A stretch of 58,192 nucleotides of DNA from an uncultured Bacillales bacterium (GCA_964470405.1 CAYYCV010000006.1:1-58192); one strand, 5' to 3'. Positions 30,060-49,943 are shown, counted from the first letter of the stretch. Notes: generated by a model from the sequence alone, not told the origin. Translations and numbers: made by a program.

Positions 30060-31475
30060 TCAAGGATGAATAGTCAGCCCCACAAGCGGCCAATATAGGA
30101 ATGCGGCAAGAAGCGTGATCGCGGTCATGAGTACCGTCAAGATGGTGCCCGACAGGAAATAGTCTTTCCCGTTGTAGTGGCCGAAGCCGAACGTCGACAT
30201 GCTCCCGGCCGACTGGCTGGGCACAAAGTAGCCGTTGCTGCAGGCGACCAGGCAGACCATGCCCAGCCACACCGGATTAAACGAGCTGGCCGTGGCAAAG
30301 GTCAGCGCAATCGGCATGAGCGAAGCCACCATGGCTGAATTATTGGTAAAGCCGATGCGAATGAGAATGAAGATAATCATCATCGAAAGCGCTAAAGCGA
30401 ATGCCGAAAAATGATTGAAATGATTTCCCGCCATGTCGGACATAACGTCAATCACTCCGTTTTTCTGCAACCCGTCGGCCAGGGCGAATCCGGCGGCGAA
30501 CAACAGCGTGATGCCCCAGTCCACTTTCCGGCCGGTTTCCTTCCATTTCAGCAATCGAAAGCCGGGCAGAAACATCAAACAAACCACGGCCAAGGCCGGA
30601 ACCGCGATCGGAAGGCCGTGCCACTGCCCGCCGATCCATAGGAAAGCCAGGAGCAAGCAGAGAAACACCAGCTTTTTCTCCGATAAACTGATCGGCCCCA
30701 GCTTGCCGTATTCCGCGCGAAAAAAGCTCAAGCTTTCCAGTACAGGCTGCTTCGCGACCGGATACATCCAAAGCAAAATCAGCCAGAATACCCCGATGGA
30801 CAGCAAGACGATGGGCATCATCAGCACCATCCAGTACAGGTAATCCCAATGATAGCCGAGCATGGACCGGAACAGACCGACGGCGTATATCGAGCCCCCG
30901 GCCCCGGTCATTAAGCTGACGGCGCCGGCATAAGGCACGAAGGTGATGATGAGGAACACCAGCTTGGGGAAATGGGGGCCACCCCGCCCGCCGACCGCGG
31001 CCACAATGCCGACCGCGATCGGCAGCAGCAAAGTAATTCGGCCGATCGCGTTGGATATGAAGAACGTCAGCATAAAAGCGAGGGCCGTCAGCAGCAGCAG
31101 CATCCATCGCAAACGCCCGCCGGATGCGATCATTAAACGGTAGGCGATCCTGCGGTCCAACCCGTATTTTTCAAACGCCGCGCCGACAATCAACATGGAG
31201 AGAATCAGCCATATCTCCTCTTTCCCCAGGGCCGCCGCCGCCTGCTCAAACGGTAAAATTCCCGTGATCGCAAGCAAGGCCATCACAATTAAGCTGGTGA
31301 CCGGCGTTGGAACGATCGAGGTCAACCATAAGACGATCGCCAACAATAAAAGCCCCAGGGAACGCCAACCGGAAGCGCTCAGCACTTCCGGCAAGGGCAA
31401 AACGAGGGTGCCGATGAAAACGAGAATGACGCCCGCCACTGCCACCGTTGCGGTATTCCACCCAGATGTCTTCAT
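30060..31475 (-). CDS. DASS/SLC13-family anion (di/tricarboxylate) transporter
   Basis: 471 aa polytopic permease with a DASS-like N-terminal region. It is the last gene of the long minus-strand operon. Confidence 0.75.
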   Translation of the reverse strand: MKTSGWNTATVAVAGVILVFIGTLVLPLPEVLSASGWRSLGLLLLAIVLWLTSIVPTPVTSLIVMALLAITGILPFEQAAAALGKEEIWLILSMLIVGAAFEKYGLDRRIAYRLMIASGGRLRWMLLLLTALAFMLTFFISNAIGRITLLLPIAVGIVAAVGGRGGPHFPKLVFLIITFVPYAGAVSLMTGAGGSIYAVGLFRSMLGYHWDYLYWMVLMMPIVLLSIGVFWLILLWMYPVAKQPVLESLSFFRAEYGKLGPISLSEKKLVFLCLLLAFLWIGGQWHGLPIAVPALAVVCLMFLPGFRLLKWKETGRKVDWGITLLFAAGFALADGLQKNGVIDVMSDMAGNHFNHFSAFALALSMMIIFILIRIGFTNNSAMVASLMPIALTFATASSFNPVWLGMVCLVACSNGYFVPSQSAGSMSTFGFGHYNGKDYFLSGTILTVLMTAITLLAAFLYWPLVGLTIHP

Positions 31476-31481
31476 CGACGT

Positions 31482-32927
31482 CTAGTTCGGTCGGCAAAGC
31501 GGAAGGATGTCGTTGACCAGCGAACGCGTCTCAAACGCATACATGTACTTCGTCAAGGTATCGACTTGCGCGTTTCCGATCATGGGCGCGGCAAGCCGGG
31601 TGAATTTACGGATCAAATCCTCGTTCTTCATCGGGTTTTCGATGCTTCCCGTGGCGTGCTCGATCATCACCTCGTGTTGCGACCCGTCTTTTTTGGTTAA
31701 TACCGCTTTGGCCATTTCCTCTTTCATCGTCGGATCGATCTCGGTTTTGATTTTGCTGCGGAATGCGACAACCTCGGGGGACAGCACCTTCTCATCTTCA
31801 TATTGCGCTTGTCCCGCATCCCCTTCCATGAACGCGATCGAGGCCGTATGATAGATGCTGAATTTCCCTTCCAGGCCCGTTTGCGGGTTGATCTTGCTCG
31901 TCAGCTCCAGCACGTAGGGATTCGTAATGATGTGAATTTCATCCACCTCCGCCGGAGAAGCGAATTCCCTCAGGGCGATGCAAGCGTCGATGGAAGGATG
32001 GAGGACAATGCCGCAGGCGTATGGCTTGAATGCGTTCTTCAATATTTCCCAGTTGGAGCCCCAATTCACATTGACCTGCGAAAGATCGCTTTCGGGCGAA
32101 AGCACGTGAGCGAATCCCCGTTTCGCCTCCAGCACTTGCTTGGAGCTGGTGAAGCCCCGCTTGGCCAGCAGCGCCGCCAGCAAGCCGTTCTGGGCCGCCT
32201 TCCCGGGGTGAAAGGGCTTGGTCATCGTGCCGAACATCTCCCTCAGGCCGAAAGCCTGCGTCCCGGCGATGCCGAGCGCGTACAGCATTTCCTCCTCGCT
32301 CGATTGAAGCAGCAGGCAGGCGGCAATGGCCGCTCCGAATACGCCCGTTGTGCTCGTCACATGCCAGCCGATATCGTAATGGCTGGGGCGGATCGCGTTG
32401 CTGATGCGCAATTCGGCCTCTACCCCCAGAATGAATGCGTGCAGCAGTTCGCTGCCGCTAAAGCCATAATGTTCCCCCAGTGCAAATACGACGGGGGCAA
32501 CCGGCCCGCTGGGGTGGTGGATCGTATCCAGGTGCGTATCGTCGTAGTCGAAAATATGGGACGACATGCCGTTTACCAACACGGCATGCAATAAATCGAG
32601 CTTCTCCGTTCTTCCGAGAATGGATACCTGCGCCGAGGAATCCATGGCCCGGGCGACCTCCAACACCATATCGACCGAATCGTGCCGGGCCGCGCCGATG
32701 GTCACGCCCAGCCAATTGTACAAGCTTCGCACACCGTGATCTTTGACATCTTGGGGGATGCTGTCCCAGCGGGTTCGCAATACGTTCCGAACCAGCAATG
32801 GGGTCACTTCCGTATTTGCAACCGGGGAAGCAGCCGATGTCCCGGAAACGCCTGTTGTATACATATTGTGATTTTGCAAAATTGATCCCTCCGCGACCAT
32901 AACATAGATATATTCGTATATTGGCAA
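31482..32927 (-). CDS. MmgE/PrpD family protein
   Basis: VNGMSSHIFDYDDTHLDTIHHPSGPV is the characteristic MmgE/PrpD motif. The start is uncertain, with an alternative ATG at 32864. Confidence 0.85.
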   Translation of the reverse strand: MPIYEYIYVMVAEGSILQNHNMYTTGVSGTSAASPVANTEVTPLLVRNVLRTRWDSIPQDVKDHGVRSLYNWLGVTIGAARHDSVDMVLEVARAMDSSAQVSILGRTEKLDLLHAVLVNGMSSHIFDYDDTHLDTIHHPSGPVAPVVFALGEHYGFSGSELLHAFILGVEAELRISNAIRPSHYDIGWHVTSTTGVFGAAIAACLLLQSSEEEMLYALGIAGTQAFGLREMFGTMTKPFHPGKAAQNGLLAALLAKRGFTSSKQVLEAKRGFAHVLSPESDLSQVNVNWGSNWEILKNAFKPYACGIVLHPSIDACIALREFASPAEVDEIHIITNPYVLELTSKINPQTGLEGKFSIYHTASIAFMEGDAGQAQYEDEKVLSPEVVAFRSKIKTEIDPTMKEEMAKAVLTKKDGSQHEVMIEHATGSIENPMKNEDLIRKFTRLAAPMIGNAQVDTLTKYMYAFETRSLVNDILPLCRPN

Positions 32928-32958
32928 AAAGTCTGAAAATGGATCCTGCCGAAAAGTC

Positions 32959-33624
32959 CTATCCGTTCATAGCGTTATGATCCGCCAACTGCTTGAGCGC
33001 ATTTTTGTAGGCGTTTCTGACGTGAAATTGGGCCGTCGATTCCGCGAGATTTCCGTCGCCTATTTCAATGGCATTCAGGATCATTCGATGCTCGCGCAAA
33101 TTCTGCTCGGGGCGGCCGGATTGGGAAAGCGAAGTGGACATTAAAAGGCCGATGTGAGTTTGCAAGGTTTGCATCATCGTCTGGAGATAGAAATTTTGCG
33201 AGCCTTGGGCAATCTCCATATGAAATTGGGCGTTCACCTTGGACAGATGATGAATGTCCCCCAATGAGGCAAACCTTTCCGCGTCATCCAGCAGCTTTCC
33301 CAGGTGTTCAATCGCGTGCCGGTTTCCTTTGATCGCCATCAGTCGAGCCCCCAGCCCCTCCAATACTTCCCTGATATCGTACAATTGCTCGATTTGCTCC
33401 GTGGAGATGCTGGTGACGGTGCACCCTTTATGCGGTGCGGAAGTGACAAGCCCCAGGATTTCCAATTGGCGGAAAGCCTCCCGGATGGGGGTTCGACTGA
33501 CCCCGAGTTTGGCTGAAATGGCCCGCTCCGAAAGCGTCTGGCCGGTGTGAATTTCTCCCTGCTGAATGGCGTGAAATAAATACTCGACAACTTGATCCCG
33601 TTTAATGTCCTTTTCTTCCGACAT
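32959..33624 (-). CDS. GntR family transcriptional regulator (FadR/FCD subfamily)
   Basis: 221 aa. N-terminal wHTH (LSERAISAKLGVSRTPIREAFRQLE) and a C-terminal all-helical FCD-like domain. Confidence 0.9.
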   Translation of the reverse strand: MSEEKDIKRDQVVEYLFHAIQQGEIHTGQTLSERAISAKLGVSRTPIREAFRQLEILGLVTSAPHKGCTVTSISTEQIEQLYDIREVLEGLGARLMAIKGNRHAIEHLGKLLDDAERFASLGDIHHLSKVNAQFHMEIAQGSQNFYLQTMMQTLQTHIGLLMSTSLSQSGRPEQNLREHRMILNAIEIGDGNLAESTAQFHVRNAYKNALKQLADHNAMNG

Positions 33625-33650
33625 TCCAATCCCACCCTAAATCAAAATAT

Positions 33651-35387
33651 TTACCGTTTTGGTCCTAAATTCAATCCGATCATCTTGGCGGCGATAGCGA
33701 TGCCGACCGTCATGAACATGATAATCACGCCAATCACCGTGGCGGCCTCCAATCGCCCGTCGTACATCATGTCCAACTGCAGCATCGCCAGCGGCTTGTT
33801 GCTTGGAGTGGACAACAAGGCGACGTGAGCGACCGATCTGGCGGCGCTGGCGAAGATGGTCACGGCGACCACGGCGACGGTCGGCGCGATAAGCGGCAAT
33901 ATGATTCGCCTCATCGAGTAAAATAACGAGGCGCCGCTCACGTACGAGGCTTCTTCCAATTCGTTGCCGATTTGCAGCATACCGCCTTTCATCAATTGAA
34001 TGCCGAACGTCATATTGCCGAACAACACCGCAATAACCAGAATGATCATGGTGCCGTAAAGAGGCTGGAATACGGGGGTGGACAGCACCATCCACAGGAA
34101 GCCCAGGCTCACGACAATACCGGGAATCGCGGTGGGCATCCAGGACAGGAAGTCGAGGGATCCCCGCAAGCGATACGATGACTTGACCGAAATATAAGTG
34201 ATCAAAAACAAAATGGGGATAGAAATCAGCATCGTGCCAATAGACAGAATGAGGGTGTTATTCAAACCGTGAATAAATCCCGAGTTGGACAAAACCGCGT
34301 GCCAGTTGTAGGTGGTCCAATCGGTGCCCCACATGCCGAATATCCGTTTGAAGCTGCCTACCACGACCATAAGCAAGGGAACGATCGTCATGATAAAAAC
34401 GAACAGGAAAACGAACGAAAATGCGGGCCATTTCCATTTGCCCAGCTTGAATGTTCTGGTGGAAAATTTACCTGAAACCGTAGTGTAATTTTTACGGGCA
34501 ATGATCATTTGTTGCGCGATCACCATCGGCACGATCATGAGCAGCGCGGCGATGCTTAAGACGGAGCCATGGCCGTACAGCGGCGGTTCTTGTTTAATAA
34601 AATTATAAATCAATGTGCTATAGACGTGAATGCGGTCCGGAGCGCCCAGAATCAATTCAACCTCAAAGCCCTCCATGGACCGGATCAATCCAAGCACAAC
34701 GGCGACAAGAATCACGGGGACCATAATCGGGACGGTGATGCGAAATATCGTTCCGATGGTGCTCGCCCCTGAAGTCAACGAGGCTTCTTCCAACGACGCG
34801 TTCATGTTGCGCATGGCAGGCGCCAGCATCATAATCTTTACGGGTATCGTTCCGGTCAGCAGGTGTACCCAAATTATACCCCAGTAAGAATAGATGTTAA
34901 ATGGACCTTTGTCGATAAATGGGATTTTTTCAATTAACGTGTTAAGCAAACCGTTGTGCCAATCGAAAATCATAATCCATGACAAGGTGACTGTCAAGGT
35001 CGGCATGAAAAGGGCGATCCAAAAACCGACCTCCAGCCAGTGCCCGCCGGGTAAATCCGTCCGCGCGATCAACCATGCCAGAAAGACGCCGATCACAATC
35101 GCGATCAGTTGCCGCATCACGGAAAGCGTGATCGTGTTCCAGATCGCATCCTTGATATTTTTATCGTGCAGCGCTTCGATCCAGTTGGACAGTCCCAGGT
35201 AATACTCCTGGCCGAAGTTGCCCACCCGAATCGATTGGATGATGACGAGAGCCAAGGGATACAGGACAAAGAAGCCGACGATGATAAGGATGGCCGTATA
35301 GAACACCGTGCTTGGGCGAATGGATTTTTTCAGCTTGTCGGCAAGGTTGGACCCCGGTTCGAGCGGCTGATAATCTAGCTTTTCCAT
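33651..35387 (-). CDS. ABC transporter permease, fused double-domain (FbpB/ThiP-like)
   Basis: About 578 aa with two MetI-like permease halves. The ATG at 35387 overlaps the upstream ATPase stop. Confidence 0.85.
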   Translation of the reverse strand: MEKLDYQPLEPGSNLADKLKKSIRPSTVFYTAILIIVGFFVLYPLALVIIQSIRVGNFGQEYYLGLSNWIEALHDKNIKDAIWNTITLSVMRQLIAIVIGVFLAWLIARTDLPGGHWLEVGFWIALFMPTLTVTLSWIMIFDWHNGLLNTLIEKIPFIDKGPFNIYSYWGIIWVHLLTGTIPVKIMMLAPAMRNMNASLEEASLTSGASTIGTIFRITVPIMVPVILVAVVLGLIRSMEGFEVELILGAPDRIHVYSTLIYNFIKQEPPLYGHGSVLSIAALLMIVPMVIAQQMIIARKNYTTVSGKFSTRTFKLGKWKWPAFSFVFLFVFIMTIVPLLMVVVGSFKRIFGMWGTDWTTYNWHAVLSNSGFIHGLNNTLILSIGTMLISIPILFLITYISVKSSYRLRGSLDFLSWMPTAIPGIVVSLGFLWMVLSTPVFQPLYGTMIILVIAVLFGNMTFGIQLMKGGMLQIGNELEEASYVSGASLFYSMRRIILPLIAPTVAVVAVTIFASAARSVAHVALLSTPSNKPLAMLQLDMMYDGRLEAATVIGVIIMFMTVGIAIAAKMIGLNLGPKR

Positions 35388-36559
35388 AGCCGGGTATCCT
35401 CCCTTGGAAAGGTAAGAATGATATCTTGCCCAAGCGACCACTTCTGATGATGCGGCAAAAACAAAGATATTTTCTCGCTGCCTTGTAAAGTAACGGTCGT
35501 CTCATATCCGTTGCCGACGAAGAACAGCATATCGATTTGGCATCGCATCGCGTTGATATCCGGTTGACCGGACAGCTCCTCGTAACGGGTTTCCGTGTAA
35601 GGCACGGCGGAGATATGCTCGGGACGAAGGGATGCCACGGCGCTTTCGCCCACGGAAAGATCGTCGGACAACGGATGGCTGGCATGGAAAAAGCGCTCTT
35701 GTTGACTGTTCAGCGACAATCGATATCCTTCCGCGGACTTCTCCGCCACCTTGCAAGGCAGCAGGATCGATTTTCCCAGGAAATCGCGAACAAAGGTGGT
35801 GACAGGCCGATGGTATACATCCTCCGGCGAGCCGATCTGTTCGATTCTTCCTCCGTTCATCACCCCGATGCGATCCGACAAGCTCAACGCTTCGATCTGG
35901 TCGTGGGTGACGAAGAGAACCGTGATGCCAATTCGCTTCTGCAATTCCTTGACCTCGATGCGCATATGCTCCCTTAACTGGGCGTCCAAATTGCTGAAGG
36001 GTTCGTCCAACAAAAGAATATCCGGACTAAAGACCAGGCTTCTGGCGAAAGCGACTCTCTGCTGCTGTCCCCCGCTCAGCATCGGAGCCGGCCGGTCCGG
36101 CAAATGTCCCAAGCCGACCAATTCGAGCACCCGCATAACTTCCCTTTTAATGACGTCTTTTTTCTGCTTCATCACACGCATCGGATAGGCGACATTTTCA
36201 AACACGGTCATTTGGGGCCAAATGGCGTACGATTGAAACACCATGCCCATCTTCCGCTTGTTCGTCGGAACGAACGTGTTGCTTATTTTGGAATCGATAA
36301 TTTTACCGTTATAGGTGATTTCTCCGCCATCGATCTTCTCCAGCCCGATCGCCATTCTCAACGTCGTTGTTTTTCCGCACCCGCTGGGTCCGAGCAATGT
36401 TAAAATCTCGCCTCTTTTGATTTCCAAATTCAGGTCCTTCACCACGTGTACGTTTCCAAAGTGTTTGTTGACCTTGTTCATCAGAAGCACATGATCGTCG
36501 CGGGTCGGGCTTTGATCCGCATGGCTCCCCTGTTTAGGGTTCGCGTTTAAAGACAGCAT
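35375..36559 (-). CDS. ABC transporter ATP-binding protein (PotA/FbpC-like with C-terminal TOBE-like domain)
   Basis: Walker A GPSGCGKTT, signature LSGGQQQRV and Walker B LLLDEP. Confidence 0.92.
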   Translation of the reverse strand: MLSLNANPKQGSHADQSPTRDDHVLLMNKVNKHFGNVHVVKDLNLEIKRGEILTLLGPSGCGKTTTLRMAIGLEKIDGGEITYNGKIIDSKISNTFVPTNKRKMGMVFQSYAIWPQMTVFENVAYPMRVMKQKKDVIKREVMRVLELVGLGHLPDRPAPMLSGGQQQRVAFARSLVFSPDILLLDEPFSNLDAQLREHMRIEVKELQKRIGITVLFVTHDQIEALSLSDRIGVMNGGRIEQIGSPEDVYHRPVTTFVRDFLGKSILLPCKVAEKSAEGYRLSLNSQQERFFHASHPLSDDLSVGESAVASLRPEHISAVPYTETRYEELSGQPDINAMRCQIDMLFFVGNGYETTVTLQGSEKISLFLPHHQKWSLGQDIILTFPREDTRLWKS

Positions 36560-36613
36560 AGTCTACCTCCTTGTATGCGCGCATGAGGCGTACCTCAATC
36601 AAGTCGAATGGAA

Positions 36614-37597
36614 TCAACGATGCTCCGGAACGAGCAGGATTTTGCCGATGCTGTTCCTGGCTTCGACCAATCGGTGCGCATCTGCGGCTTCCGCCAGGGA
36701 AAAGGTATCCCCGACGACAATATGCAAGCTCCCCTTGCTCAAATAACCCAGCACTTTCTCCGCTGTCGGCTTTACAAGATGGGGCCGGTGTTTCCGCGTA
36801 TGCCCGAAGCTGAATCCGAGCACCGATCTGCAATTATGGAACAAATCGGCCGTGTTGATCTTCGTCGGTCCGCCCATATTCCCAAATACAACGAGCCGGC
36901 CGTACATCGCCAGACAGCTCAAGCTGCGTTCCGTAACGGGTCCCGAAATCGAATCGAGGATCACGTCCGCGCCTTTTCCGTCCGTTATATCCAGCACAGC
37001 CTTAGAAAAGTCTTCTTCGGTGTGATGGATGACGTGGTCGGCACCCGCCTCTTTCGCGATGGCCGCCTTGCTTTCGCTGCTCACCGTGCCGATCACCTGC
37101 GACGCTCCGAGTAATTTGGCGATTTGAACGGCCGTCGATCCCACGCCGCCCGCCGCTCCATGAATGAGCACGGTTTCGCCCTCCCGAATTCGCGCCACGT
37201 CCGCCAGCAACTGATGGGAAGTAAAGGCCACGATCGGGCAGGCCGCGCCCAATTTGAAATCCACCGCATCCGGCAGCGGAAACGTTAATATCGCATCGGT
37301 CGCAACATATTCGGCATAGGATCCGTTTGACGTGAATGCGATGACCCGCTGTCCGACCCGAAATTCGGTTATGTCGGCCCCTGTCTCTACGATCGTGCCG
37401 GCGACGTCCAACCCCGGAATATACGGCAGTTGCCTGATGTTGCGCGGGTTCCCGTAACGGCCTTTGATATCCGCATAATTCACCCCTGTGGCTTCCACCC
37501 GGATCAGGACCTGATTGGCCGCCGGCGCGGGTCGATTCATATCCGTATATCGCATCACTTCAGGTCCGCCGTGTTGCGTGACGATCACTGCTTTCAT
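36614..37597 (-). CDS. NADPH:quinone oxidoreductase-like MDR dehydrogenase
   Basis: MKAVIVTQHGGPEVM... and an AAGGVGS Rossmann motif. The internal ATG at 37597 is preferred. Confidence 0.85.
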   Translation of the reverse strand: MKAVIVTQHGGPEVMRYTDMNRPAPAANQVLIRVEATGVNYADIKGRYGNPRNIRQLPYIPGLDVAGTIVETGADITEFRVGQRVIAFTSNGSYAEYVATDAILTFPLPDAVDFKLGAACPIVAFTSHQLLADVARIREGETVLIHGAAGGVGSTAVQIAKLLGASQVIGTVSSESKAAIAKEAGADHVIHHTEEDFSKAVLDITDGKGADVILDSISGPVTERSLSCLAMYGRLVVFGNMGGPTKINTADLFHNCRSVLGFSFGHTRKHRPHLVKPTAEKVLGYLSKGSLHIVVGDTFSLAEAADAHRLVEARNSIGKILLVPEHR

Positions 37598-37608
37598 TTT
37601 CCCATCCC

Positions 37609-37848
37609 CTACCAAACTTGAATGATTTCTCCGCGTTCGACCGCTTCCCAAATGGTATACGTGTCAAAGCCTTTATCTTTCCAATCTACCAGATCGTAAT
37701 CCAATCTATGGCCAATAATCACCCGGATGCCGTGTTTGCGCAAATGCTCCGCCTCTTCCAGCGCGCGCGAGCTGAAGGACAGAATCGCGATCAATTTGCC
37801 TCTGTAGTATTTGTCGATAAAGTCGCTCTCGGTGTTATTGCCCGCCAT
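37609..37848 (-). CDS. Small protein resembling the first about 70 residues of ketol-acid reductoisomerase, with a degenerate Gly-rich loop
   Basis: 79 aa. GKLIAILSFSSRALEEAEHLRKHGIRVIIGHR...WKDKGFDTYTIWEAVERGEIIQVW aligns by eye with IlvC [30 protein letters not shown]...AAAQAEIIMVL. A GGAGG lies 9 nt before the ATG. Confidence 0.5.
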   Translation of the reverse strand: MAGNNTESDFIDKYYRGKLIAILSFSSRALEEAEHLRKHGIRVIIGHRLDYDLVDWKDKGFDTYTIWEAVERGEIIQVW

Positions 37849-37902
37849 AACGCACAACCTCCTGTATGAACGATGAGCATAAGGGGCATAGCCCCTTTAT
37901 GC

Positions 37903-39012
37903 TTATTTGCCCCACGGTAACACCGTGCAATGAATGGCTCCAATGTTGATTTCCGCTCCCACCGTGCGCAAAGCGTCATGCACGCCGTGCAGATCGAACG
38001 AATGCGTGCACAGCTTGTCCAGCGGATGTTTGCCGCCGGCGATGACATCGAGCGCCATTTCCACGGCGAGATAGCTATGCCCGCGCACGCCTCGGACCGT
38101 CAGATTTTTGGACAAAATCTGGTCGCTGTCAAAGGAGGGAATGGGCTGCTTTTTCCTGGCGGCCAGGATCACCCTTCCGCGTTTTCGGGTCATTCGGATC
38201 GCGTTGCTTACGGTCACGGTTCCGCCTGTGGAGACATCCAGCACCATATCCGCCATTTCGCCGTTCGTTATCTCTTTTACCCGTTCAAGCAAGTCTTCCT
38301 TCTCCACATCGACGATATAATCCGCGCCCAGTTCCAACGCCGTGTTCAAGCGGTGGCTGTCGCGGCCCAAACCGCTGACAATGACGCATTTCGCTCCTGC
38401 CGCTTTGGCCGCGATCACGCAGCCCAGGCCTTGCTGTCCCGGACCCTGGATGACCACCGTGTCTCCCATCTTCACTTCGCCTTGCAAGTACACCCATTCG
38501 ATGCCGTTCGACAGCGGGAGAGCCAGGGCGGCCTGCTCCGCGGGAATATGGCTTTTCACTTTGTGCAGCACCGCGCTGGGGTGCAAATATAAATATTGGC
38601 TATACCCGCCGTACAATGAAGGCTTGACGGACGTGGGGGTGGAACCGTAACGGATGAAGTGCTCCCGGTGCGAATCCGTTTGGTAGCAGGAGCGAAATTC
38701 ACCGGTGCGGCAAAATGTGCATTGTCCGCAGGGGAGGTACTCTTCCAACGCGACGCGATCGCCTTCTTTCACCCCCCACAGCTCTTGCGCTCTTCTGCCG
38801 ATTTTCTCGACAAATCCGACATTCTCATGTCCCAATATGCGCGGCGTCAATTTGCCGCCGGTATACATCGGCCAGTCGGAGCCGCAAATTCCGGCGGCTT
38901 CGATTCTTAAAAGCCCGCCGTCTTCCGGAATATCCGGCAAATCGAATTCCTGAAGCTCGGTTGTCCGTTCGGCCACCATGACGGCGGCCAGACATCGATT
39001 AGACAAACCCAT
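37903..39012 (-). CDS. Zinc-dependent alcohol/polyol dehydrogenase (MDR family)
   Basis: GICGSDWPMY, GHENVGFVEKIG, a structural-Zn Cys cluster (CGQCTFCRTGEFRSC) and a GPGQQG Rossmann motif. Confidence 0.88.
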   Translation of the reverse strand: MGLSNRCLAAVMVAERTTELQEFDLPDIPEDGGLLRIEAAGICGSDWPMYTGGKLTPRILGHENVGFVEKIGRRAQELWGVKEGDRVALEEYLPCGQCTFCRTGEFRSCYQTDSHREHFIRYGSTPTSVKPSLYGGYSQYLYLHPSAVLHKVKSHIPAEQAALALPLSNGIEWVYLQGEVKMGDTVVIQGPGQQGLGCVIAAKAAGAKCVIVSGLGRDSHRLNTALELGADYIVDVEKEDLLERVKEITNGEMADMVLDVSTGGTVTVSNAIRMTRKRGRVILAARKKQPIPSFDSDQILSKNLTVRGVRGHSYLAVEMALDVIAGGKHPLDKLCTHSFDLHGVHDALRTVGAEINIGAIHCTVLPWGK

Positions 39013-39054
39013 CCATCCCCTTCCTTGATACGTGGTTCAACCTTTGCCGGAAGA

Positions 39055-41358: not shown

Positions 41359-41388
41359 AGATCATCTCTCCCTTAATTCGTAAATGTT

Positions 41389-42063: not shown

Positions 42064-42707
42064 GATTTGCTTTGCAATCGATGATAGTTGAATTTCTCCC
42101 TTGCACGACCCAAGGTCGCGCCTTGCTCCACTTCCGCTCTAATCGCATCCTCCGCCTTCTCGATTTCCAAGGCCACGGATAGCACTTTCTCCTCGCACTC
42201 TGCGGGGATTACCACGACCCCGTCCGCATCTCCAACCAGCAAGTCGCCCGGGCTGATTCGGACGTTTCCGAATGAAACGGGGACGTTCACGCCTTCGACC
42301 TGCACGCGATCTTTGCCGGTTCGCATATAATGGTCGAGACTGAAGATGGGATAGGCCAGCTTCAGGCTTAGCTCCGAATCGCGGCAAACGCCGTGAATCA
42401 CGGTGCCCGCGATGCGCTTGTGGTGCGCGACGGTTGTCAGAATATCGCCCCAAACGGTGCAATCCGTCTTCCCGTCGTTATCCAAAACGATCAGTTCGCC
42501 TTCGTTTACATCGTCAATATAGTCCCCGACCGTTCCTTTCGTTATGCCGACGGGCCCGTATTTAACCGTAAACGCCCGGCCCACCGTACGAAAGCTTCGA
42601 TCGAGGGGCTTCACACCGAGGCATTGGCCGGTGATCCCGAGCTTGTCCAGCGCGTCCGAAATCGTGGATGTGGATAGTTTTTTGAATGATTCCGCCACCG
42701 AATCCAT
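42060..42707 (-). CDS. RraA family protein (paralog 2)
   Basis: 215 aa. STISDALDKLGITG..., VWGDILTTVA, HGVCRD and GDADGVVVIP. Confidence 0.8.
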   Translation of the reverse strand: MDSVAESFKKLSTSTISDALDKLGITGQCLGVKPLDRSFRTVGRAFTVKYGPVGITKGTVGDYIDDVNEGELIVLDNDGKTDCTVWGDILTTVAHHKRIAGTVIHGVCRDSELSLKLAYPIFSLDHYMRTGKDRVQVEGVNVPVSFGNVRISPGDLLVGDADGVVVIPAECEEKVLSVALEIEKAEDAIRAEVEQGATLGRAREKFNYHRLQSKS

Positions 42708-42715
42708 CTGGATGC

Positions 42716-43381
42716 TTACCCCCTCTCCAACATCGTTTCGTAATTCTTCCCCATCACTTCCGTCACCGTTGTTCCGTTCATCAGATCGTCTATCATTTTT
42801 CTTTCCTTATTAGCCAGCTTCTCCGCCACGGCGATGACCTCCTCCATCCGTTCGGCCGCGATGAACACCACTCCGCTTCCGTCGGCGATGACATAATCTC
42901 CCGGTCGAATGGCCACAGATTCGATTTCGATCTGTTCATTATATGAATGCTCCACGATCCGGCTTCTTGCCGTCACCGTGACAGTGGATCGGGCGAATAC
43001 CGGAAAGCCGTATTCGCGGCTCTCGTCGGCATCCCGACACGCTCCGTGAACGATGGCGCCGCGGATGCCCTTCGCCTTGGCGGCAACGGATAGAATGCCT
43101 CCCCAAGCTCCGACATCCGGACGCCCCTGATTGTCTACGACGATCACATCGTTTGGCGATGCGATTTCTATAGCCGCGGTGCCCAAATGACGGGCGGATG
43201 CCTGGCCGTCTCTCTTGGGAACAAGCTTCACCGTGATGGCTCTTCCTACGATTTTGCCGCAATCCCAAACCTTCCGAAGCCCTATAACGGCTCCCCTTAA
43301 CCCCAGCGAATCAAGCGCATCGGACACCGCGCATGCATCCAGTTCCCCAAGCCTTTGGAGCATCGTCTCGTCATGGCCCAC
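42716..43381 (-). CDS. RraA family protein (paralog 3)
   Basis: AVSDALDSLGLRG..., AWGGILSVAA, HGACRD and ADGSGVVFI. I prefer the GTG at 43381, 8 nt after AAGGAGG. The ORF-track ATG at 43426 lies inside the operator palindrome. Confidence 0.75.
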   Translation of the reverse strand: MGHDETMLQRLGELDACAVSDALDSLGLRGAVIGLRKVWDCGKIVGRAITVKLVPKRDGQASARHLGTAAIEIASPNDVIVVDNQGRPDVGAWGGILSVAAKAKGIRGAIVHGACRDADESREYGFPVFARSTVTVTARSRIVEHSYNEQIEIESVAIRPGDYVIADGSGVVFIAAERMEEVIAVAEKLANKERKMIDDLMNGTTVTEVMGKNYETMLERG

Positions 43382-43415: not shown

Positions 43416-43425
43416 TGGTATACCA
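43416..43425. promoter_or_regulatory. Operator-like palindrome TGGTATACCA (site 1)
   Basis: Perfect 10-bp palindrome 9 nt downstream of the -10 of the minus-strand operon promoter. Confidence 0.65.
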
Positions 43426-43570: not shown

Positions 43571-43580
43571 TGGTATACAA
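43571..43580. promoter_or_regulatory. Operator-like half-degenerate site TGGTATACAA (site 2)
   Basis: 1 mismatch to the palindrome, in the divergent intergenic region. Confidence 0.4.
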
Positions 43581-43770: not shown

Positions 43771-43799
43771 TTGACAGAAGTTTGGAAGTACCATAAAAT
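43771..43799 (+). promoter_or_regulatory. Putative sigma-A promoter of the binding-protein/MFS transcription unit
   Basis: TTGACA (43771-43776), 17 nt, TAAAAT (43794-43799). Confidence 0.65.
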
Positions 43800-43809: not shown

Positions 43810-43819
43810 TGGTATACCA
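43810..43819. promoter_or_regulatory. Operator-like palindrome TGGTATACCA (site 4)
   Basis: Perfect palindrome 10 nt downstream of the -10. Confidence 0.65.
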
Positions 43820-43997: not shown

Positions 43998-45155
43998 ATG
44001 AGTTTGTTCAAACGTTCATTGTTTTACATCATGTGTGTGCTGCTGATCGGGACGATGGCGGCTTGTTCCGCCAATAATAACCCCGGCGAATCTGCGGCAA
44101 CGCCGGATACATCTGCTGCGAATACGCCGGCTCCGGCGGAGACACCTGCGGAAAATGCAAAGGATGCCGAGTGGGAACAAGTGCTGGAAGCCGCGAAAAA
44201 AGAAACTTTGAAGGTCATCGTTCAACCGGGCGTCCAGGATACGGCTTTTGTGGAAGACTTTAAGAAAGCTTACCCGGATATCAAAGTGGAATTCGAAGGA
44301 TTGCGCCCGAGCGATGTGGCTCCCAAAATTGTAACGGAACAACAGAACAACAAGTTCTACTGGGATGTGATGGTTGCGGCTACATCGAATATGGTGAGTG
44401 TCTTGGGGCCTGCCAACGCTTTCCAGGATATTCGGCCCTTCCTGCCCGAACAGTCCGATGACGACTGGAATGCGGGATTTGAATTGTATGCCCAGAACGT
44501 GTCGAACCAGCCTTGGACGTTCCTGATTACAACCGATCTGCACGCTACGCTGTATGTCAATCGGGATCAGCTTACCCCGGAACAATTCAGCAGTGTGGAT
44601 GATCTGATGAAGCCGGAATACAAGGGGAAAATCGTTATTCATACGCCTAAAACGCAGTCTACGGGCTCCCTGGCGTTAGCGGGGATTCTCAACATCAAGG
44701 ACGAAGCGTTCATCGAAAAATTGTTGACGGAACAGGAACCGGTGTTTGTGGACGATCAATCGATCGCGGCCAACTGGGTCGTCGACGGCAGATATCCGAT
44801 CGGCATCGGTCTGGATCGGCCCCGCCTTCAGGAATTGCAGAGCGCCGGTCTTGGCAAATCGATTGAACGGTTGGACTTCCCGGGCCAATCCACGCTTTCC
44901 AGAGGGATGAGCGTATTCCGCAACAACCCGAGCCCGAATGCAACCAAAGTATTTGTCGATTGGGTGTTGAGCGATGAGGGGCAAACCTCCTACGCGCTCA
45001 ATCGCCATCAGAACTCCAGGAAGAAAGGCATTGAGCCCGGCGATACGGATCTGCTGATCGATTGGAGCCAATATGACAAGTATTCCTTGCAAGGCACCGA
45101 GAAAGGCTCCGATCAAGTCATGAAAGTCATTGAGATTTATAAAAAGCACTTCTAG
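43998..45155 (+). CDS. ABC transporter substrate-binding lipoprotein (family-1, FbpA/PotD-like)
   Basis: MSLFKRSLFYIMCVLLIGTMAACS is a lipoprotein signal. RBS AAGGGGAG lies 7 nt before the ATG at 43998. This is probably the partner of the ABC genes at 33651-36559. Confidence 0.85.
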   Translation: MSLFKRSLFYIMCVLLIGTMAACSANNNPGESAATPDTSAANTPAPAETPAENAKDAEWEQVLEAAKKETLKVIVQPGVQDTAFVEDFKKAYPDIKVEFEGLRPSDVAPKIVTEQQNNKFYWDVMVAATSNMVSVLGPANAFQDIRPFLPEQSDDDWNAGFELYAQNVSNQPWTFLITTDLHATLYVNRDQLTPEQFSSVDDLMKPEYKGKIVIHTPKTQSTGSLALAGILNIKDEAFIEKLLTEQEPVFVDDQSIAANWVVDGRYPIGIGLDRPRLQELQSAGLGKSIERLDFPGQSTLSRGMSVFRNNPSPNATKVFVDWVLSDEGQTSYALNRHQNSRKKGIEPGDTDLLIDWSQYDKYSLQGTEKGSDQVMKVIEIYKKHF

Positions 45156-45313
45156 TTTCCGATCGCTGTTGTCCGCCGATTTCTCCGATTCACAGTCTGA
45201 TGGGGAAGAAATCGGCGGGCAAAGGCGACTCCTTTCGTTTCTCCCATTATAAAGCCGCCTCGTACAATGAATGTTTTCATTCAGCGCAGTTACGGGCGGC
45301 TTTATTGATATCA

Positions 45314-46513
45314 ATGGATCCAGCCATCGAGGTGAACCTTTTGTCACAAAAAGCCATTGTTTTTTCATATAGCAGCTCGCTTTTTTTTAATATTGCCTCC
45401 TCTGTGTCGATTATACTGATTCCGTTGTATGCTTTGCATCTGGGGTACGATCCTTTGCAGATCGGCACATTGATCTCGTCGGCGGGCATTTTCCATGTGT
45501 TATTGCGAATATTCGGCGGCATGTTGTCCGATTATTTCGAGGAGCGGCCCATTTTGTGGACCAGCTACACGGTCTTTCTGGCGGGTACGCTTATACTGGG
45601 CATGACCGAATCGTTCTGGTCCATTTTTTTTGCCCAGCTCATTATGGGCGCCGCCCGTTCTTTCTATTGGACGGCAAGCCAGTCCTATTCGACGCGCATC
45701 AATGAGCGGCAGGCTTCGGGCATTATCGCCAAATTGACGAGCGTCACCAGCGCCGGCCAGGTGCTCGGGTTTTTCCTGGGCGGTGTGATCGCCGCTTTGC
45801 TGGGATACCAACTCAGCTTTTTCACCTGCGCCGCGATCAGCTTCATTGCCTTGGTGCTGAGCGTGATCATGCCAAAGCTGCCGCGGAAAACCAAGAAGCG
45901 CAAGCCGGCGGACATCTTCAAGCCCATTCCGGCCGTGCTGCGCGTACGCCCGCTATATTTGGCGGGCATGCTGGCGTTTGTGGCCGCGCTGCCCATATCG
46001 CTGGTCAACTCGTTTTACCCTGTATACTTTCAGGAAATCGGCTTCAACGAGACCGTCACTGGCTCGCTCAATTCGCTGCGTCCGGTTGGCGCCATTGTCA
46101 TCGGCATGATTTTCGGGCGGTTTTTCTCCAAGGCCAGCAAGAAAATTTTATTTACTGTCGGGATGTGCGGGACGGGGTTGCTGATTCTCTTTACCCCGTT
46201 GATGGAGGACGCCTGGATTTTGTCGCCGTTGATGCTGTTCATCGGGATCACTGCGGGCGTGTCCCAAATTCTTTACCAAACGATTGTCACGGAGTACAGC
46301 AAGCCCGAGCGGCGCGGAATATCGCTGGCATTGTCCGGCACGGCCTTCTCCTTCTCCATACTGATTGTGCCGCTCCTGTTTGGCTGGCTGGTCAAGATGC
46401 ATGATCTGGCGACGGCGTTTACGGTCATTGGTTCCGCGCTGGTGTTTGTCAGCATGTTTACCCCGTTGTTCTTTCATTATTTGATTGCAAAATACAAGCA
46501 TGTCGAGTCGTAA
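45314..46513 (+). CDS. MFS transporter
   Basis: About 12 TM helices. The internal ATG at 45314 is preferred because the N-terminal extension is not membrane-like. Confidence 0.85.
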   Translation: MDPAIEVNLLSQKAIVFSYSSSLFFNIASSVSIILIPLYALHLGYDPLQIGTLISSAGIFHVLLRIFGGMLSDYFEERPILWTSYTVFLAGTLILGMTESFWSIFFAQLIMGAARSFYWTASQSYSTRINERQASGIIAKLTSVTSAGQVLGFFLGGVIAALLGYQLSFFTCAAISFIALVLSVIMPKLPRKTKKRKPADIFKPIPAVLRVRPLYLAGMLAFVAALPISLVNSFYPVYFQEIGFNETVTGSLNSLRPVGAIVIGMIFGRFFSKASKKILFTVGMCGTGLLILFTPLMEDAWILSPLMLFIGITAGVSQILYQTIVTEYSKPERRGISLALSGTAFSFSILIVPLLFGWLVKMHDLATAFTVIGSALVFVSMFTPLFFHYLIAKYKHVES

Positions 46514-46634: not shown

Positions 46635-47660
46635 TTATGACCAGCGGCAGAAGGTCATGCCGATGCCGGTTCCCGCAGCCGTGCGAAAAACGGGGATGTA
46701 TTCGTCCCAGTCCAGGCGCAGATGCTCCACGGCGGCGGCCAGCGCGATCCAGTTGCGTATTTCGCCGCTTCCGGCTTTTAAACGGTGCAACGGCAAATGG
46801 CGCAGATCGAACTCGGAACGGTTGCGAAGCGCGTTCAACACCTTCTGGTCGATGCCCACGTCCGTCACGAAATGGCTTAACCCGCCTGAAGCGACCACCG
46901 CGACCTTCAAAGGATCGGGAATCGACTCGATCGCCACCCGCAGCGCCCGGCCGAAGTCGTAACACCGGGAAGGCGAGATCGCGTTGGGCGGCCAAATATT
47001 CAAATAGACGGGCACCATGGGGATCACGCGATCTTCGTCCATCAGTTTCGTAACCACCATGCCGTAACCGTGCCCGTGCCCGCTGACCGCCGGTTCCTTC
47101 TGCTCCCGCAAAACGCCGACGTCGAAATTTTGCTGGATTAACGATTCCACGATATGCCCCGCCACTTGGCCGGACCCTGGCCAAACGTTGTTTTTATCCA
47201 TTCCTTTCACTTTGCTTGCCTTTTTGAATGCTTCGGAATCGGGATCGAGCAGCGGCTTGCGCTTGATCTTCTCCATGCGCTTTCTTTCATCCGCGCTGAT
47301 CAGCCGATCCCCGCAATATACCGCGATAGCCGGCACATTCGACTCGTCCAGAAATTCGCCCGGGTGATCGTTGCTGATAATCACGGCGACATCCGGAATC
47401 TCTTTCAAAAAGTCGTTCTTCAATCTGGCGAAATTGCGATTCATCGCCTCGTACAACAATTGCAAATTTTCCGGGCTTGCCTGTTCCGCATAGCGTCCTT
47501 CCCGCTGATTTTCCAGGTCGGCGTAAGACATATGCTGTCCGGTTTCGTCGTAAAGGAGCTTGTGATGGAGATCGTTGCCTTGAAATAGCGGCCAATGCTC
47601 TCCTTCCATCGCCATCATTGGACTGTGCGACATACCGATGCCTTGAACGATTTCGGCCAT
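46635..47660 (-). CDS. Class III extradiol ring-cleavage dioxygenase (LigB family), single subunit
   Basis: 341 aa. GIGMSHSPM..., SNDHPGEF and SGHGHGYG match the LigB-superfamily pattern. No LigA-like small subunit lies nearby. Confidence 0.75.
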   Translation of the reverse strand: MAEIVQGIGMSHSPMMAMEGEHWPLFQGNDLHHKLLYDETGQHMSYADLENQREGRYAEQASPENLQLLYEAMNRNFARLKNDFLKEIPDVAVIISNDHPGEFLDESNVPAIAVYCGDRLISADERKRMEKIKRKPLLDPDSEAFKKASKVKGMDKNNVWPGSGQVAGHIVESLIQQNFDVGVLREQKEPAVSGHGHGYGMVVTKLMDEDRVIPMVPVYLNIWPPNAISPSRCYDFGRALRVAIESIPDPLKVAVVASGGLSHFVTDVGIDQKVLNALRNRSEFDLRHLPLHRLKAGSGEIRNWIALAAAVEHLRLDWDEYIPVFRTAAGTGIGMTFCRWS

Positions 47661-49073: not shown

Positions 49074-49454
49074 CTAGAGCACAGCCACAAATTCAATTTG
49101 AATATGCGTACCTTCACCCAAGTTTTTAATCGTTATGTGTCTGGCCGGCCTGTCGTTCTCATCCGGGAACATCCGAAGCCAGTGTTCGTTCACCAAGCTT
49201 CGGTAAAGATTGTCGCTGAGGTGCACGCTCATGTGGGCGATATGCTCGATTGACCCGCCGGCATTCTCGACCAATGTTTGGATGTGTTGAAACACAAGCC
49301 GCACTTCTTCTTTCACATCGGCCGGCTTTTGGCCCGTATTCGGGTCCTTGCCGCTGAGCGCGGAGGAATACACCATATTGCCGATCTTGACGCCCATCGG
49401 TATCGGTGCTTTGTGCTCTATCCCCGGGATATACAGCCGTTCTCTTAAAGGCAT
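49074..49454 (-). CDS. RidA/YjgF family enamine/imine deaminase-like protein
   Basis: 126 aa with a YjgF/RidA-like sequence. Confidence 0.8.
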   Translation of the reverse strand: MPLRERLYIPGIEHKAPIPMGVKIGNMVYSSALSGKDPNTGQKPADVKEEVRLVFQHIQTLVENAGGSIEHIAHMSVHLSDNLYRSLVNEHWLRMFPDENDRPARHITIKNLGEGTHIQIEFVAVL

Positions 49455-49505: not shown

Positions 49506-49515
49506 TGGTATACCA
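49506..49515. promoter_or_regulatory. Operator-like palindrome TGGTATACCA (site 5)
   Basis: Perfect palindrome 10 nt downstream of the -10 of the ridA-MFS-dioxygenase promoter. Confidence 0.65.
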
Positions 49516-49525
49516 ATTGATAAAT

Positions 49526-49554
49526 ATTTTATGCTAAATTTGATATTGTGTCAA
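49526..49554 (-). promoter_or_regulatory. Putative sigma-A promoter of the RidA-MFS-LigB operon
   Basis: Read on the minus strand: TTGACA (49549-49554), 17 nt, TAAAAT (49526-49531). Confidence 0.65.
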
Positions 49555-49649
49555 GTGGCCTTCCGCTATTAGGCGTTGATGAATTGGTTATTTAATGGGA
49601 GGAATGCAGCCTTTTGCTTGATTATCCGATTTTTCATTATTTAAAAAAA

Positions 49650-49677
49650 TTCACAATATGGTATACCATGTTGTGAA
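49650..49677. promoter_or_regulatory. Extended 28-bp near-perfect palindrome centred on TGGTATACCA (site 6)
   Basis: TTCACAATATGGTATACCATGTTGTGAA, with the core at 49659-49668. It lies just upstream of the CoA-transferase remnant. Confidence 0.6.
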
Positions 49678-49943
49678 TGGAGTGTGGGGGTGGTACGGAC
49701 GGAATGAGAATCTCATTGGACGCAAAGCGGGCGGTTACCCAAAAGCAAAAAATTCTTTATATCACGGAGCGCGCTGTCTTTGAATTGCTCGAAGGGGAGT
49801 TGACCTTGATTGAGATTGCGCCGGGTATAGACCTGCAGCGCCACATTTTAGACTTGCTTGACTTTGAAGTGAAGGTTCATCGCGACCTCAAACAGATGGA
49901 TCGGAAACTATTTCTCCCGGAGGCCATGGGGATCGCGTTGTGA
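49677..49943 (+). pseudogene. C-terminal remnant of an acyl-CoA:acetate/3-ketoacid CoA-transferase (YdiF-like)
   Basis: ILYITERAVFELLEGELTLIEIAPGIDLQRHILDLLDFEV...LKQMDRKLF matches only the last about 70 residues of family-I CoA transferases. No upstream coding sequence is present. Confidence 0.7.

Follow-up and report, generated by a model that had tools for sequence, protein, structure and literature searches.

A putative GntR-controlled island for the catabolism of carboxylated aromatic acids, built around a LigZ/LigY-type module, in a Bacillales bacterium

Characterisation of the LigZ/LigY module for hydrolytic meta-cleavage has to date been limited to one lignin biphenyl, 5,5'-dehydrodivanillate (DDVA), in one sphingomonad, SYK-6. 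In this organism, ligZ is SLG_07720, ligY is SLG_07750 and the oxygenase gene ligXa is SLG_07770, with the ferredoxin and the reductase of LigXa encoded at distant loci (PMC12997858), and the hydration of 4-carboxy-2-hydroxypenta-2,4-dienoate (CHPD) in the DDVA pathway was listed as 'not identified' in a 2025 paper (PMC12673573). Two other described systems are relevant here, namely the isophthalate dioxygenase (IPDO) of Comamonas testosteroni KF1 (9INA), in which R234 and H257, assisted by G172 and T175, bind both carboxylates of isophthalate (PMC12445078), and DipR, a dipicolinate-responsive GntR/FadR repressor that binds a GTATAC motif (PMC11472048). The subject of this work is an island of approximately 20 kb (30060-49680) in a 58,192-nt stretch of DNA from an uncultured Bacillales bacterium; the whole stretch is called the window, and all coordinates refer to it. 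As judged from its genes, their relatives and its promoters, the island is on balance probably one repressor-controlled unit for the uptake and catabolism of a carboxylated aromatic acid, organised around a LigZ/LigY-type hydrolytic meta-cleavage module.

A preliminary description of this DNA held that no described ring-cleavage pathway has such an enzyme set. This has to be revised, given that the core of the island is homologous to, and syntenic with, the ligZ-RraA-RraA-ligY-ligXa genes of the SYK-6 DDVA pathway. The type of pathway is therefore already known, and what is new is that a LigZ/LigY-type module stands under GntR control in a Gram-positive host, with another type of oxygenase to feed it and with conserved uncharacterised accessory proteins. 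No paper describing this cluster was found in the searchable full-text literature, and no characterised ortholog covers all the components of the island.

The LigZ/LigY-type core and its relatives

The core genes, and the two genes proposed to feed them, are listed below.

46635-47660, minus strand: single-subunit class III (LigB-superfamily) extradiol dioxygenase, LigZ-like (PF02900, 58.9 bits, above the Pfam threshold)
42716-43381, minus strand: RraA3, matching the first RraA open reading frame (ORF) between ligZ and ligY of the SYK-6-like locus L093 (8662-9333)
42060-42707, minus strand: RraA2, matching the second such ORF of L093 (9333-9989)
41389-42063, minus strand: RraA1, LigK-like 4-hydroxy-4-methyl-2-oxoglutarate/4-carboxy-4-hydroxy-2-oxoadipate (HMG/CHA) aldolase / oxaloacetate decarboxylase (NF006731, 174.2 versus a cutoff of 179; best solved match 3NOJ, 2e-34)
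40381-41358, minus strand: putative LigY-like C-C hydrolase of the amidohydrolase superfamily (Amidohydro_2; LigY is the best solved match)
39055-40329, minus strand: Rieske non-heme-iron oxygenase of the phthalate/LigXa family, alpha subunit only (PF00355; PF19301, LigXa_C)
37903-39012, minus strand: Zn-dependent alcohol dehydrogenase (Zn-ADH; PF08240, PF00107), with the catalytic C-H-E and a structural Cys4 motif visible

The LigY sequence was rebuilt from an alignment and then used as a search query, which retrieved a 91%-identical protein; its contig is the SYK-6-like locus L093. L093 has LigB (331 aa), two RraA-like genes and Amidohydro_2 in this order, and a Rieske/LigXa_C gene in the opposite orientation. 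The order matches the SLG numbering, so that the two RraA-like ORFs correspond to the genes between ligZ and ligY. For these two genes (SLG_07730 and SLG_07740) no mention was found in the searchable literature. The proteins of the window match those of L093 one-to-one, with identities of 32% for the dioxygenase, 45% for RraA3, 55% for RraA2, 50% for the amidohydrolase and 33% for the Rieske oxygenase.

The amidohydrolase had been taken for a LigJ-like hydratase, but it is closer to LigY, the C-C hydrolase that acts on the meta-cleavage product of OH-DDVA (5VN5/6E6I; 4e-103, 348 bits, approximately 52% identity over residues 1-324) than to LigJ (2e-73, 250 bits, approximately 40% identity). 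In the alignment with LigY the HxH motif matches, as do the His and Glu positions further along, to which functional roles are ascribed in enzymes of this kind.

The dioxygenase aligns over its full length with the LigZ-like protein of L093 (E 2.6e-39), and with solved LigB and DesB only over approximately 100 residues. Its NCBIfam score is 75 bits versus cutoffs of at least 290, the nearest groups being protocatechuate (PCA) 4,5-dioxygenase and gallate dioxygenase. In an alignment of 125 relatives H12, E102, H197, H263 and E300 are invariant, and the canonical 'NDH' His, the second iron-binding His of LigB, is a Gln in 92 of the 125, being a His only in Bacillales-type members, including that of the window. 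The window dioxygenase and the LigZ-like protein share the subfamily features D-Q/H-x-E and GG(L/M), and their sequences place them together in a divergent class III subfamily.

The three RraA proteins fall by alignment into three orthologous groups, and the RraA2 and RraA3 groups are seen across four loci. Ten residues of the catalytic and phosphate sites were checked in an alignment to the HMG/CHA aldolase of P. putida, in which R123 is essential and D124 and E199 are metal ligands (PMC5065237). RraA1 and its orthologs keep all ten (N71, H75, G101, R123, D124, G144, T145, K147, R195, E199) and look like true LigK-type aldolases. RraA2 keeps R123, D124, T145, K147 and E199, and RraA3 keeps R123, D124, T145 and E199 and has K147 replaced by Arg; the pocket residues N71, H75 and R195 are changed in both. 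These two proteins probably retain metal-dependent pyruvate-enolate chemistry and act on a different substrate. In 10 of the 11 other loci with a full module, L021 being the exception, their orthologs lie side by side, and we infer from this conservation that the pair is a candidate for the CHPD hydration step. RraA2 and RraA3, previously regarded as extra paralogs added to the pathway, are a conserved part of the LigZ/LigY module.

The combination of dioxygenase, LigY-like hydrolase and paired RraA genes was found in 11 loci besides the window.

L093: SYK-6-like locus
L087: Neobacillus niacini-like contig
L081: Paenibacillus genome
L083: metagenome contig
L088: Alkalihalophilus pseudofirmus
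L084: Rhodococcus koreensis plasmid
L085: Bradyrhizobium plasmid
L090: Polymorphobacter plasmid, beside hydroxycinnamate genes
L094: Brevundimonas
L014: Armatimonadota metagenome-assembled genome (MAG)
L021: Streptosporangiaceae MAG

In L095, a Steroidobacteraceae contig, the arrangement is the same except that there is only one RraA gene. Copies of the lower module occur in Bacillota, Actinomycetota, Alphaproteobacteria and Armatimonadota. Its feeding oxygenase is an isophthalate-dioxygenase-like Rieske protein in the window, L014 and L021; another LigXa_C Rieske protein, with only 32-38% identity to that of the window, in L081, L083 and L087, the one of L083 being LigXa-like (44% identity to the LigXa-like protein); a P450 in L085 and L088; a flavoprotein in L084 and L090; and a Ring_hydroxyl_A-type Rieske protein in L094. 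Given that the upstream oxygenases differ between loci, the lower module appears from this comparison to act as a funnel into which catecholic acids of a common type are fed, and not to be bound to one substrate. Two further gene types recur in the neighbourhoods and are not found in the window island, namely an NMT1/Phosphonate-bd-like binding protein (L081, 11054-12052; L001, 6811-7668; L014, 12785-13726; L021, 14871-15872) and a 2-Hacid_dh gene (L081, L083 and L094).

Operator, promoters and genomic setting

The island is organised in three predicted transcription units, namely a 13-gene minus-strand operon, a divergent plus-strand pair coding for a substrate-binding protein (SBP) and a major facilitator superfamily (MFS) transporter, and a minus-strand RidA-MFS-LigB operon. 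The regulatory features are the following.

32959-33624, minus strand: GntR/FadR-type (FCD) regulator (PF00392, PF07729), with a 61% ortholog in L087
43463-43435, minus strand: long-operon promoter TTGACA-17-TAATAT, with TGGTATACCA at 43416-43425, 9 nt 3' of the -10 box
43771-43799, plus strand: SBP-MFS promoter TTGACA-17-TAAAAT, with the operator at 43810-43819, 10 nt 3' of the -10 box
49554-49526, minus strand: RidA-MFS-LigB promoter TTGACA-17-TAAAAT, with the operator at 49506-49515, 10 nt 3' of the -10 box
43571-43580, no strand: operator copy with one mismatch, TGGTATACAA, in the divergent intergenic region
49649-49678, no strand: 30-nt near-perfect palindrome centred on the fourth exact operator (49659-49668), approximately 100 bp upstream of the RidA promoter

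The 58 kb contain four exact copies of the 10-bp palindrome TGGTATACCA (43416, 43810, 49506 and 49659), all of them in promoter regions of the island. A second match with one mismatch lies inside an MFS gene at 45801, so that six sites with at most one mismatch are observed versus 0.54 expected, a number that none of 100 shuffled sequences reaches. The three promoters, upstream of RraA3, SBP and RidA, are the best sigma-70-like sites in the 20 kb (10-11 of 12 matches). The presence of the same operator at all three, proposed in the preliminary description, is confirmed, and the palindrome covers the predicted transcription start in each case, which is a well-supported repressor geometry in sequence terms. 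The GntR/FCD regulator is encoded inside the long operon. It is the proposed repressor of the island, and its binding to the operator is predicted. The 30-nt palindrome may serve as an auxiliary operator, or it may have belonged to a divergent gene that has since been lost. An 88-aa ORF without a Pfam hit (49677-49943, plus strand) abuts this palindrome and may be the remnant of such a gene.

A second Bacillales locus, L087, carries three exact and one near-exact copies of TGGTATACCA in its intergenic regions, together with orthologs of the regulator (61%), the dioxygenase (61%), the amidohydrolase (79%), RidA (65%), RraA1-3 (61-67%), the PrpD-like protein (65%) and the DASS symporter (48%), the DASS gene being next to the PrpD-like gene. 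L087 is the one other Bacillales locus where PrpD-like and DASS recur with the module, and the PrpD-like gene is absent from most module copies. Because all of them are kept together in L087, the comparison supports the view that operator, regulator, lower pathway, PrpD-like gene and DASS belong together. The position of the operator in the three promoters and its retention with the regulator in L087 thus bear out the earlier proposal that the island is one regulon.

The long unit runs from the GTG at 43381 to 30060, with starts supported by ribosome-binding sites (RBS) and gaps from -13 to 54 nt, the -13 nt value being the overlap of the ATPase and permease genes. Its span and gaps agree with those given before, and the number of genes, previously 14, is corrected to 13 ORFs. 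RraA3 is its first gene, with an AAGGAGG RBS before the GTG, and its longest ORF starts at 43426. A Pfam scan recovered every gene family that had been named for the island, in the places where it had been put, and the intergenic space is too small for additional genes. No island enzyme attains an NCBIfam equivalog cutoff, the nearest being RraA1 (174 bits versus 179, LigK/PcmE aldolase). Terminator-like hairpins are not in excess (27 observed versus 24.6 expected in shuffled sequence). Upstream of the regulator gene, the ABC permease gene contains two promoter-like sites with 11 of 12 matches (34873-34997, minus strand), which may be internal promoters or chance matches. A GC-rich hairpin with a 7-bp stem (37881-37897), located in the 54 nt that separate the Zn-ADH gene from the mini-ORF described below, may be an element of mRNA processing or stability.

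The window covers the region around the replication origin of a Bacillota chromosome, as indicated by NCBIfam models above their cutoffs: gyrB, recF, dnaN and dnaA are on the minus strand at 1.7-7.9 kb, and mnmE, mnmG, the Firmicute-specific noc, parB, a GdpP-like protein, the replicative helicase and purA are on the plus strand up to 28.4 kb. The GC content is approximately 52% across the whole window, and the composition of the island is not distinct. The GC skew flips at approximately 30 kb because the genes of the island are oriented against replication. The 13-gene operon (30060-43381) lies approximately 22-35 kb from dnaA and head-on to replication, which is unusual for a long Bacillota operon. 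A search of the island DNA against E. coli genomes and plasmids gave no near match, and no Rieske ortholog with more than 61% identity was found in a species-representative genome set. Public assemblies searched for an exact match to the dioxygenase of the window gave none.

On the purA side, a DUF5655/NucS_C-like gene (29005-29934, plus strand) lies between purA and the island, convergent with the latter and approximately 125 nt apart. On the other side, the border (49937-50849) is non-coding and rich in repeats, with short tandem arrays (13-nt x4, 11-nt x3, 17-18-nt x4-5, and 14/31-nt units). It is followed downstream by a MarR regulator gene divergent from a gene for a protein like a medium-chain dehydrogenase/reductase (MDR; 51808-53411) and by genes for a 7TMR-DISM histidine kinase and an OmpR-type response regulator (55195-58084); no island operator was seen at either pair.

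Proposed pathway and competing explanations

The Rieske oxygenase had been described as phthalate-type. Its best solved match is isophthalate dioxygenase (9INA; 3e-95, 42% identity), followed by two phthalate-dioxygenase-type entries. The Rieske and 2-His iron motifs are present, and the window protein and its nearest relatives all keep G172, T175, V178, R234 and H257. The IPDO positions that differ are I246 and I294, both replaced by Arg across the clade, F249, replaced by Ser, and F333, replaced by Val. The pocket fits, as far as its sequence indicates, an aromatic acid with two carboxylates in meta position and extra negative or polar groups, and it is not evidence for isophthalate itself.

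The Zn-ADH is proposed to be the dihydrodiol dehydrogenase partner of this oxygenase, and in 13 other loci an ortholog (42-55%) lies at most 10 kb from a Rieske ortholog. The neighbours of the pair in Cohnella and Alicyclobacillus are IclR regulators, TctC/TctA or MFS transporters, and cupins, in place of the LigB module, which suggests that the same upper-pathway product can enter another downstream route. Two small cupins flank the pair in L001 (11294-12481) and in L004 (5822-7079 and 11294-12418), and L004 has in addition one bicupin.

The remaining genes of the island are listed below.

30060-31475, minus strand: DASS-family anion:Na+ symporter (PF00939, 2e-58; TIGR00785, 195.4 versus a cutoff of 198.6), last gene of the long operon
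31482-32879, minus strand: MmgE/PrpD-family protein (PF03972 and PF19305), start 32879 by RBS, longest ORF from 32927
33651-35387, minus strand: fused two-domain ABC permease (two BPD_transp_1 stretches; the nearest NCBIfam model is a PhnU2/Fbp-type permease)
35375-36559, minus strand: ABC ATPase with a TOBE domain (PF00005, PF08402)
36614-37597, minus strand: quinone-oxidoreductase (QOR)-type MDR without zinc motifs (TIGR02824, 277.8 versus a cutoff of 296.8), longest ORF from 37651
37609-37848, minus strand: KARI_N-like 79-aa mini-protein with a degenerate glycine loop (PF07991, 27.5 bits), perfect RBS before the ATG at 37848
43998-45155, plus strand: SBP lipoprotein of an ABC importer (SBP_bac_8, SBP_bac_11, SBP_bac_1), longest ORF from 43941
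45200-46513, plus strand: MFS transporter 1 (PF07690), with a 49% ortholog in L083
47697-48905, minus strand: MFS transporter 2 (PF07690, 2e-55)
49074-49454, minus strand: Rid-family protein (PF01042, 47.7 bits versus a cutoff of 27.3), with the arginine motif ...PAR...

Among the transport proteins, the ABC permease start at 35387 has a good RBS and gives the 13-nt overlap with the ATPase gene (the longest ORF starts at 35441), and the RBS-supported ATG of the SBP at 43998 gives a signal peptide with the lipobox ...LIGTMAAC. The PrpD-like protein has iminodisuccinate (IDS) epimerase as its best solved relative (6e-54), followed by cis-aconitate decarboxylases, and is a candidate hydratase or isomerase for a tricarboxylate intermediate. 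Homologs of this protein on proteobacterial plasmids lie beside TctC and isocitrate-dehydrogenase-family genes, with no aromatic link. The QOR-type MDR is a possible ene-reductase. The mini-ORF, whose longest reading is 37609-37857, has homologs in L012 (6709-7011) and L004 (7080-7352), one from Alicyclobacillus herbarius and one from a MAG labelled Bacteroidetes, which end in the same ...IIQVW-stop and adjoin Rieske and Zn-ADH genes. Because this C-terminal end and the linkage to Rieske and Zn-ADH are kept in three distant organisms, the sequences indicate a conserved small protein and not gene debris.

The Rid protein (...RPARHITIK...IEFVAV) carries the arginine that serves in the active site of Rid deaminases, and it is not an archetypal RidA, as it scores only 45 on TIGR00004 versus a cutoff of 106. 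A Rid gene lies within approximately 10 kb of the dioxygenase gene in all nine full-module loci, the window included, with a dioxygenase at least 29% identical to that of the window, and it is absent from L090 (Polymorphobacter) and from the SYK-6-like locus L093.

Gene content, homologies, synteny and the geometry of operators and promoters are read directly from the DNA, and from these we infer the chemical steps as follows. Without inducer, the GntR/FCD repressor would block all three promoters. The substrate would be imported via the lipoprotein-SBP/ABC importer and/or the two MFS and the DASS carriers, and the Rieske oxygenase would act first, with electrons from a reductase encoded elsewhere, after which the Zn-ADH would complete the conversion to a carboxylated catechol (PCA or a 5-substituted derivative). 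The LigZ-like class III dioxygenase would then open the ring, and the LigY-like amidohydrolase would cut a C-C bond to give a small acid and CHPD. The RraA3/RraA2 pair, possibly as a hetero-oligomer and possibly aided by Rid, would convert CHPD to 4-hydroxy-4-methyl-2-oxoglutarate, which the LigK-like RraA1 would split into two pyruvates. The PrpD-like protein, the QOR-type MDR, DASS and the mini-protein may handle a side product or a tricarboxylate branch.

Several points weigh against this scheme. The two clade-wide Arg residues that replace Ile of IPDO in the Rieske pocket argue against plain isophthalate as the substrate, and the cupin neighbours of the Rieske/Zn-ADH pair in other genomes mean that the product of this pair may not be PCA. 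The acceptance of a semialdehyde or another small cleavage product by a LigY-type enzyme is a supposition, and the canonical second iron-binding His is replaced by Gln in most of the dioxygenase family. The identities to LigZ (32%) and LigXa (33%) are low, and therefore the substrate is very unlikely to be DDVA itself. Finally, the known LigZ/LigY route has no place for the Rid protein, and the Rid gene is missing from the SYK-6-like locus.

A first alternative is a trimmed lower pathway of gallate or PCA 4,5-cleavage, in which the LigB protein would turn a gallate-like substrate directly into 4-oxalomesaconate, a LigJ-type hydratase and an RraA aldolase would lead to pyruvate and oxaloacetate, and PrpD would replace LigU/GalD. 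The amidohydrolase, still at 2e-73 to LigJ, is compatible with this, but it is approximately 100 bits nearer to LigY, with approximately 52% versus 40% identity. Likewise, among named NCBIfam models the dioxygenase is nearest to the PCA 4,5- and gallate dioxygenase groups, at scores far below the cutoffs, and RraA1 is a complete LigK-like aldolase, but the synteny with ligZ-RraA-RraA-ligY points elsewhere and no role is left for RraA2, RraA3 and RidA. The PrpD family acts on tricarboxylates, as the alternative requires, but the PrpD-like gene is not part of most module copies. A distant relative of the dioxygenase in Conexibacter lies beside one RraA gene and a PIG-L protein, of the GalB hydratase family, which also favours a gallate-type route. 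Taken together, a route of this kind is unlikely.

A second alternative is that the substrate contains nitrogen, being a pyridine dicarboxylate such as dipicolinate or a carboxylated aminophenol. Rieske oxygenase and Zn-ADH would give a dihydroxy-pyridine acid or an aminophenol acid, the LigB protein would open the ring, the amidohydrolase would cut the product, and Rid would hydrolyse an enamine or imine with release of ammonia. Dipicolinate is the aza-analogue of isophthalate and is released by germinating spores, the Rieske oxygenase keeps the residues of IPDO that bind the meta-dicarboxylate, the PrpD-like protein is nearest to iminodisuccinate epimerase, and the host is in Bacillota. A Rid protein with a deaminase-type arginine motif is found in every close copy of the module, but the module lacks Rid in the DDVA cluster and in Polymorphobacter, where it lies beside hydroxycinnamate genes, and no other nitrogen-handling gene recurs with it. 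The lower module is also fed by LigXa-like, P450 and flavin oxygenases, and the dip cluster uses DipD, described as a novel oxygenase and not known to be a Rieske enzyme. Deaminases of the Rid family that act on 2-aminomuconate are known to work alongside aminophenol dioxygenases of the LigB type (PMC4433059). The core of the operator, GTATAC, equals the motif bound by DipR, but GTA-TAC operators are common to several unrelated GntR/FadR regulators (PMC11472048). A nitrogen-containing substrate is thus distinctly improbable. Its most specific form, in which a spore-former of the Bacillota would recycle dipicolinate, or another pyridine dicarboxylate related to it, through a Rieske/LigZ/LigY/Rid route that has no relation to the dip pathway of Proteobacteria, with the GntR protein as functional analogue of DipR, is a similarly long shot; were the substrate to contain nitrogen, the island would bear on the environmental fate of spore dipicolinate.

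The idea that the island is a mosaic of unrelated adjacent units (ABC importer, PrpD/DASS organic-acid unit, aromatic module and two dehydrogenases) is highly improbable, since the occurrence of the Rieske/Zn-ADH pair without the lower module in L001-L004, the TctC and isocitrate-dehydrogenase-family neighbours of PrpD-like genes in Proteobacteria and the promoter-like sites inside the permease gene are set against one operator at the same position in all three promoters, a regulator inside a 13-gene unit with gaps of at most 54 nt, no more terminator-like hits than by chance, and the joint recurrence of PrpD-like, DASS, GntR, lower module and operator in L087.

Comparison with described systems

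The loci compared here show that the LigZ/LigY lower pathway is widespread and modular, being present in at least four phyla with interchangeable feeding oxygenases. The analysis offers the RraA pair, together with Rid in many lineages, as candidates for the CHPD conversion step still listed as unidentified, and it describes a clean GntR regulon for carboxylated aromatic acids in a Gram-positive organism, which is relevant to the valorisation of lignin and of phthalate isomers. The preliminary description left the substrate unassigned, and we concur.

It had also reported that LigA, LigC, LigI, PrpF/LigU and a Rieske reductase are absent. A Pfam scan of the ORFs of the island and of the scanned flanks agrees, as no LigA, LigC, LigI, PrpF or reductase/ferredoxin domains were found there. 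The absence had been read as an anomaly, but the hydrolytic LigZ/LigY route needs none of the first four, and in SYK-6 the redox partners of LigXa are unlinked to its gene; the 'missing' parts are therefore expected.

Three further systems were considered and set aside. The DDVA pathway of Paenibacillus sp. B2 (mhqPOD) has enzymes unrelated to those of the island. For PCA 2,3-cleavage (Pra, Paenibacillus), the amidohydrolase is LigY/LigJ-like and not ACMSD-like (1e-19 level), and the tautomerase/decarboxylase set is not present. In Cupriavidus campinensis, a locus to which LigB and LigY match weakly lacks both a GTATAC site and annotation, and the link to dip was dropped as a main explanation.

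With the dip cluster of Alcaligenes faecalis JQ135 the island shares a GntR/FadR (FCD) repressor and multiple promoter palindromes with a GTATAC core, the comparison being one of the core alone, whereas unrelated enzymes are reported for dip (the DipD oxygenase and its redox partners). The 2-aminophenol pathways (AmnBA and AmnD) also combine a LigB-superfamily dioxygenase with a Rid-family protein, but the dioxygenase of the island is single-subunit, the set of semialdehyde dehydrogenase, tautomerase and decarboxylase is not present, and the downstream enzymes are of the LigY/RraA type.

Compared with isophthalate and phthalate dioxygenases, the Rieske protein of the island is 42% identical to IPDO, has no cognate reductase nearby, and has a Zn-ADH as its partner dehydrogenase. 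With the PCA 4,5-cleavage and gallate pathways (LigAB-LigC-LigI-LigU-LigJ-LigK; GalA-D) the island has in common a class III dioxygenase, a LigJ-related amidohydrolase (approximately 40%), a complete LigK-like aldolase in RraA1 and, probably, pyruvate-type end products. It differs in the absence of LigA, LigC, LigI and LigU/GalD and in an amidohydrolase nearer to LigY, which upholds the earlier statement that this is not a standard version of either pathway.

The closest system is the DDVA module of SYK-6 (Sphingobium/Parasphingobium lignivorans), which uses the same protein families, with the order dioxygenase-RraA-RraA-amidohydrolase seen in many copies of the module. Like the island, it has a Rieske/LigXa_C oxygenase with a reductase encoded elsewhere and no LigA, LigC, LigI or LigU. 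The LigY-like protein (50-52%) and the two RraA orthologs (45% and 55%) are close to those of the window, whereas the dioxygenase (32%) and the Rieske oxygenase (33%) are not, the latter being nearer to isophthalate dioxygenase. The gene order of the window is rearranged, with the dioxygenase in a separate operon, and the host belongs to Bacillota. Beyond what is found in SYK-6, the island has RidA, a LigK-like third RraA, the Zn-ADH, the QOR-type MDR, the PrpD-like protein, the DASS, ABC and MFS transporters and the GntR regulon.

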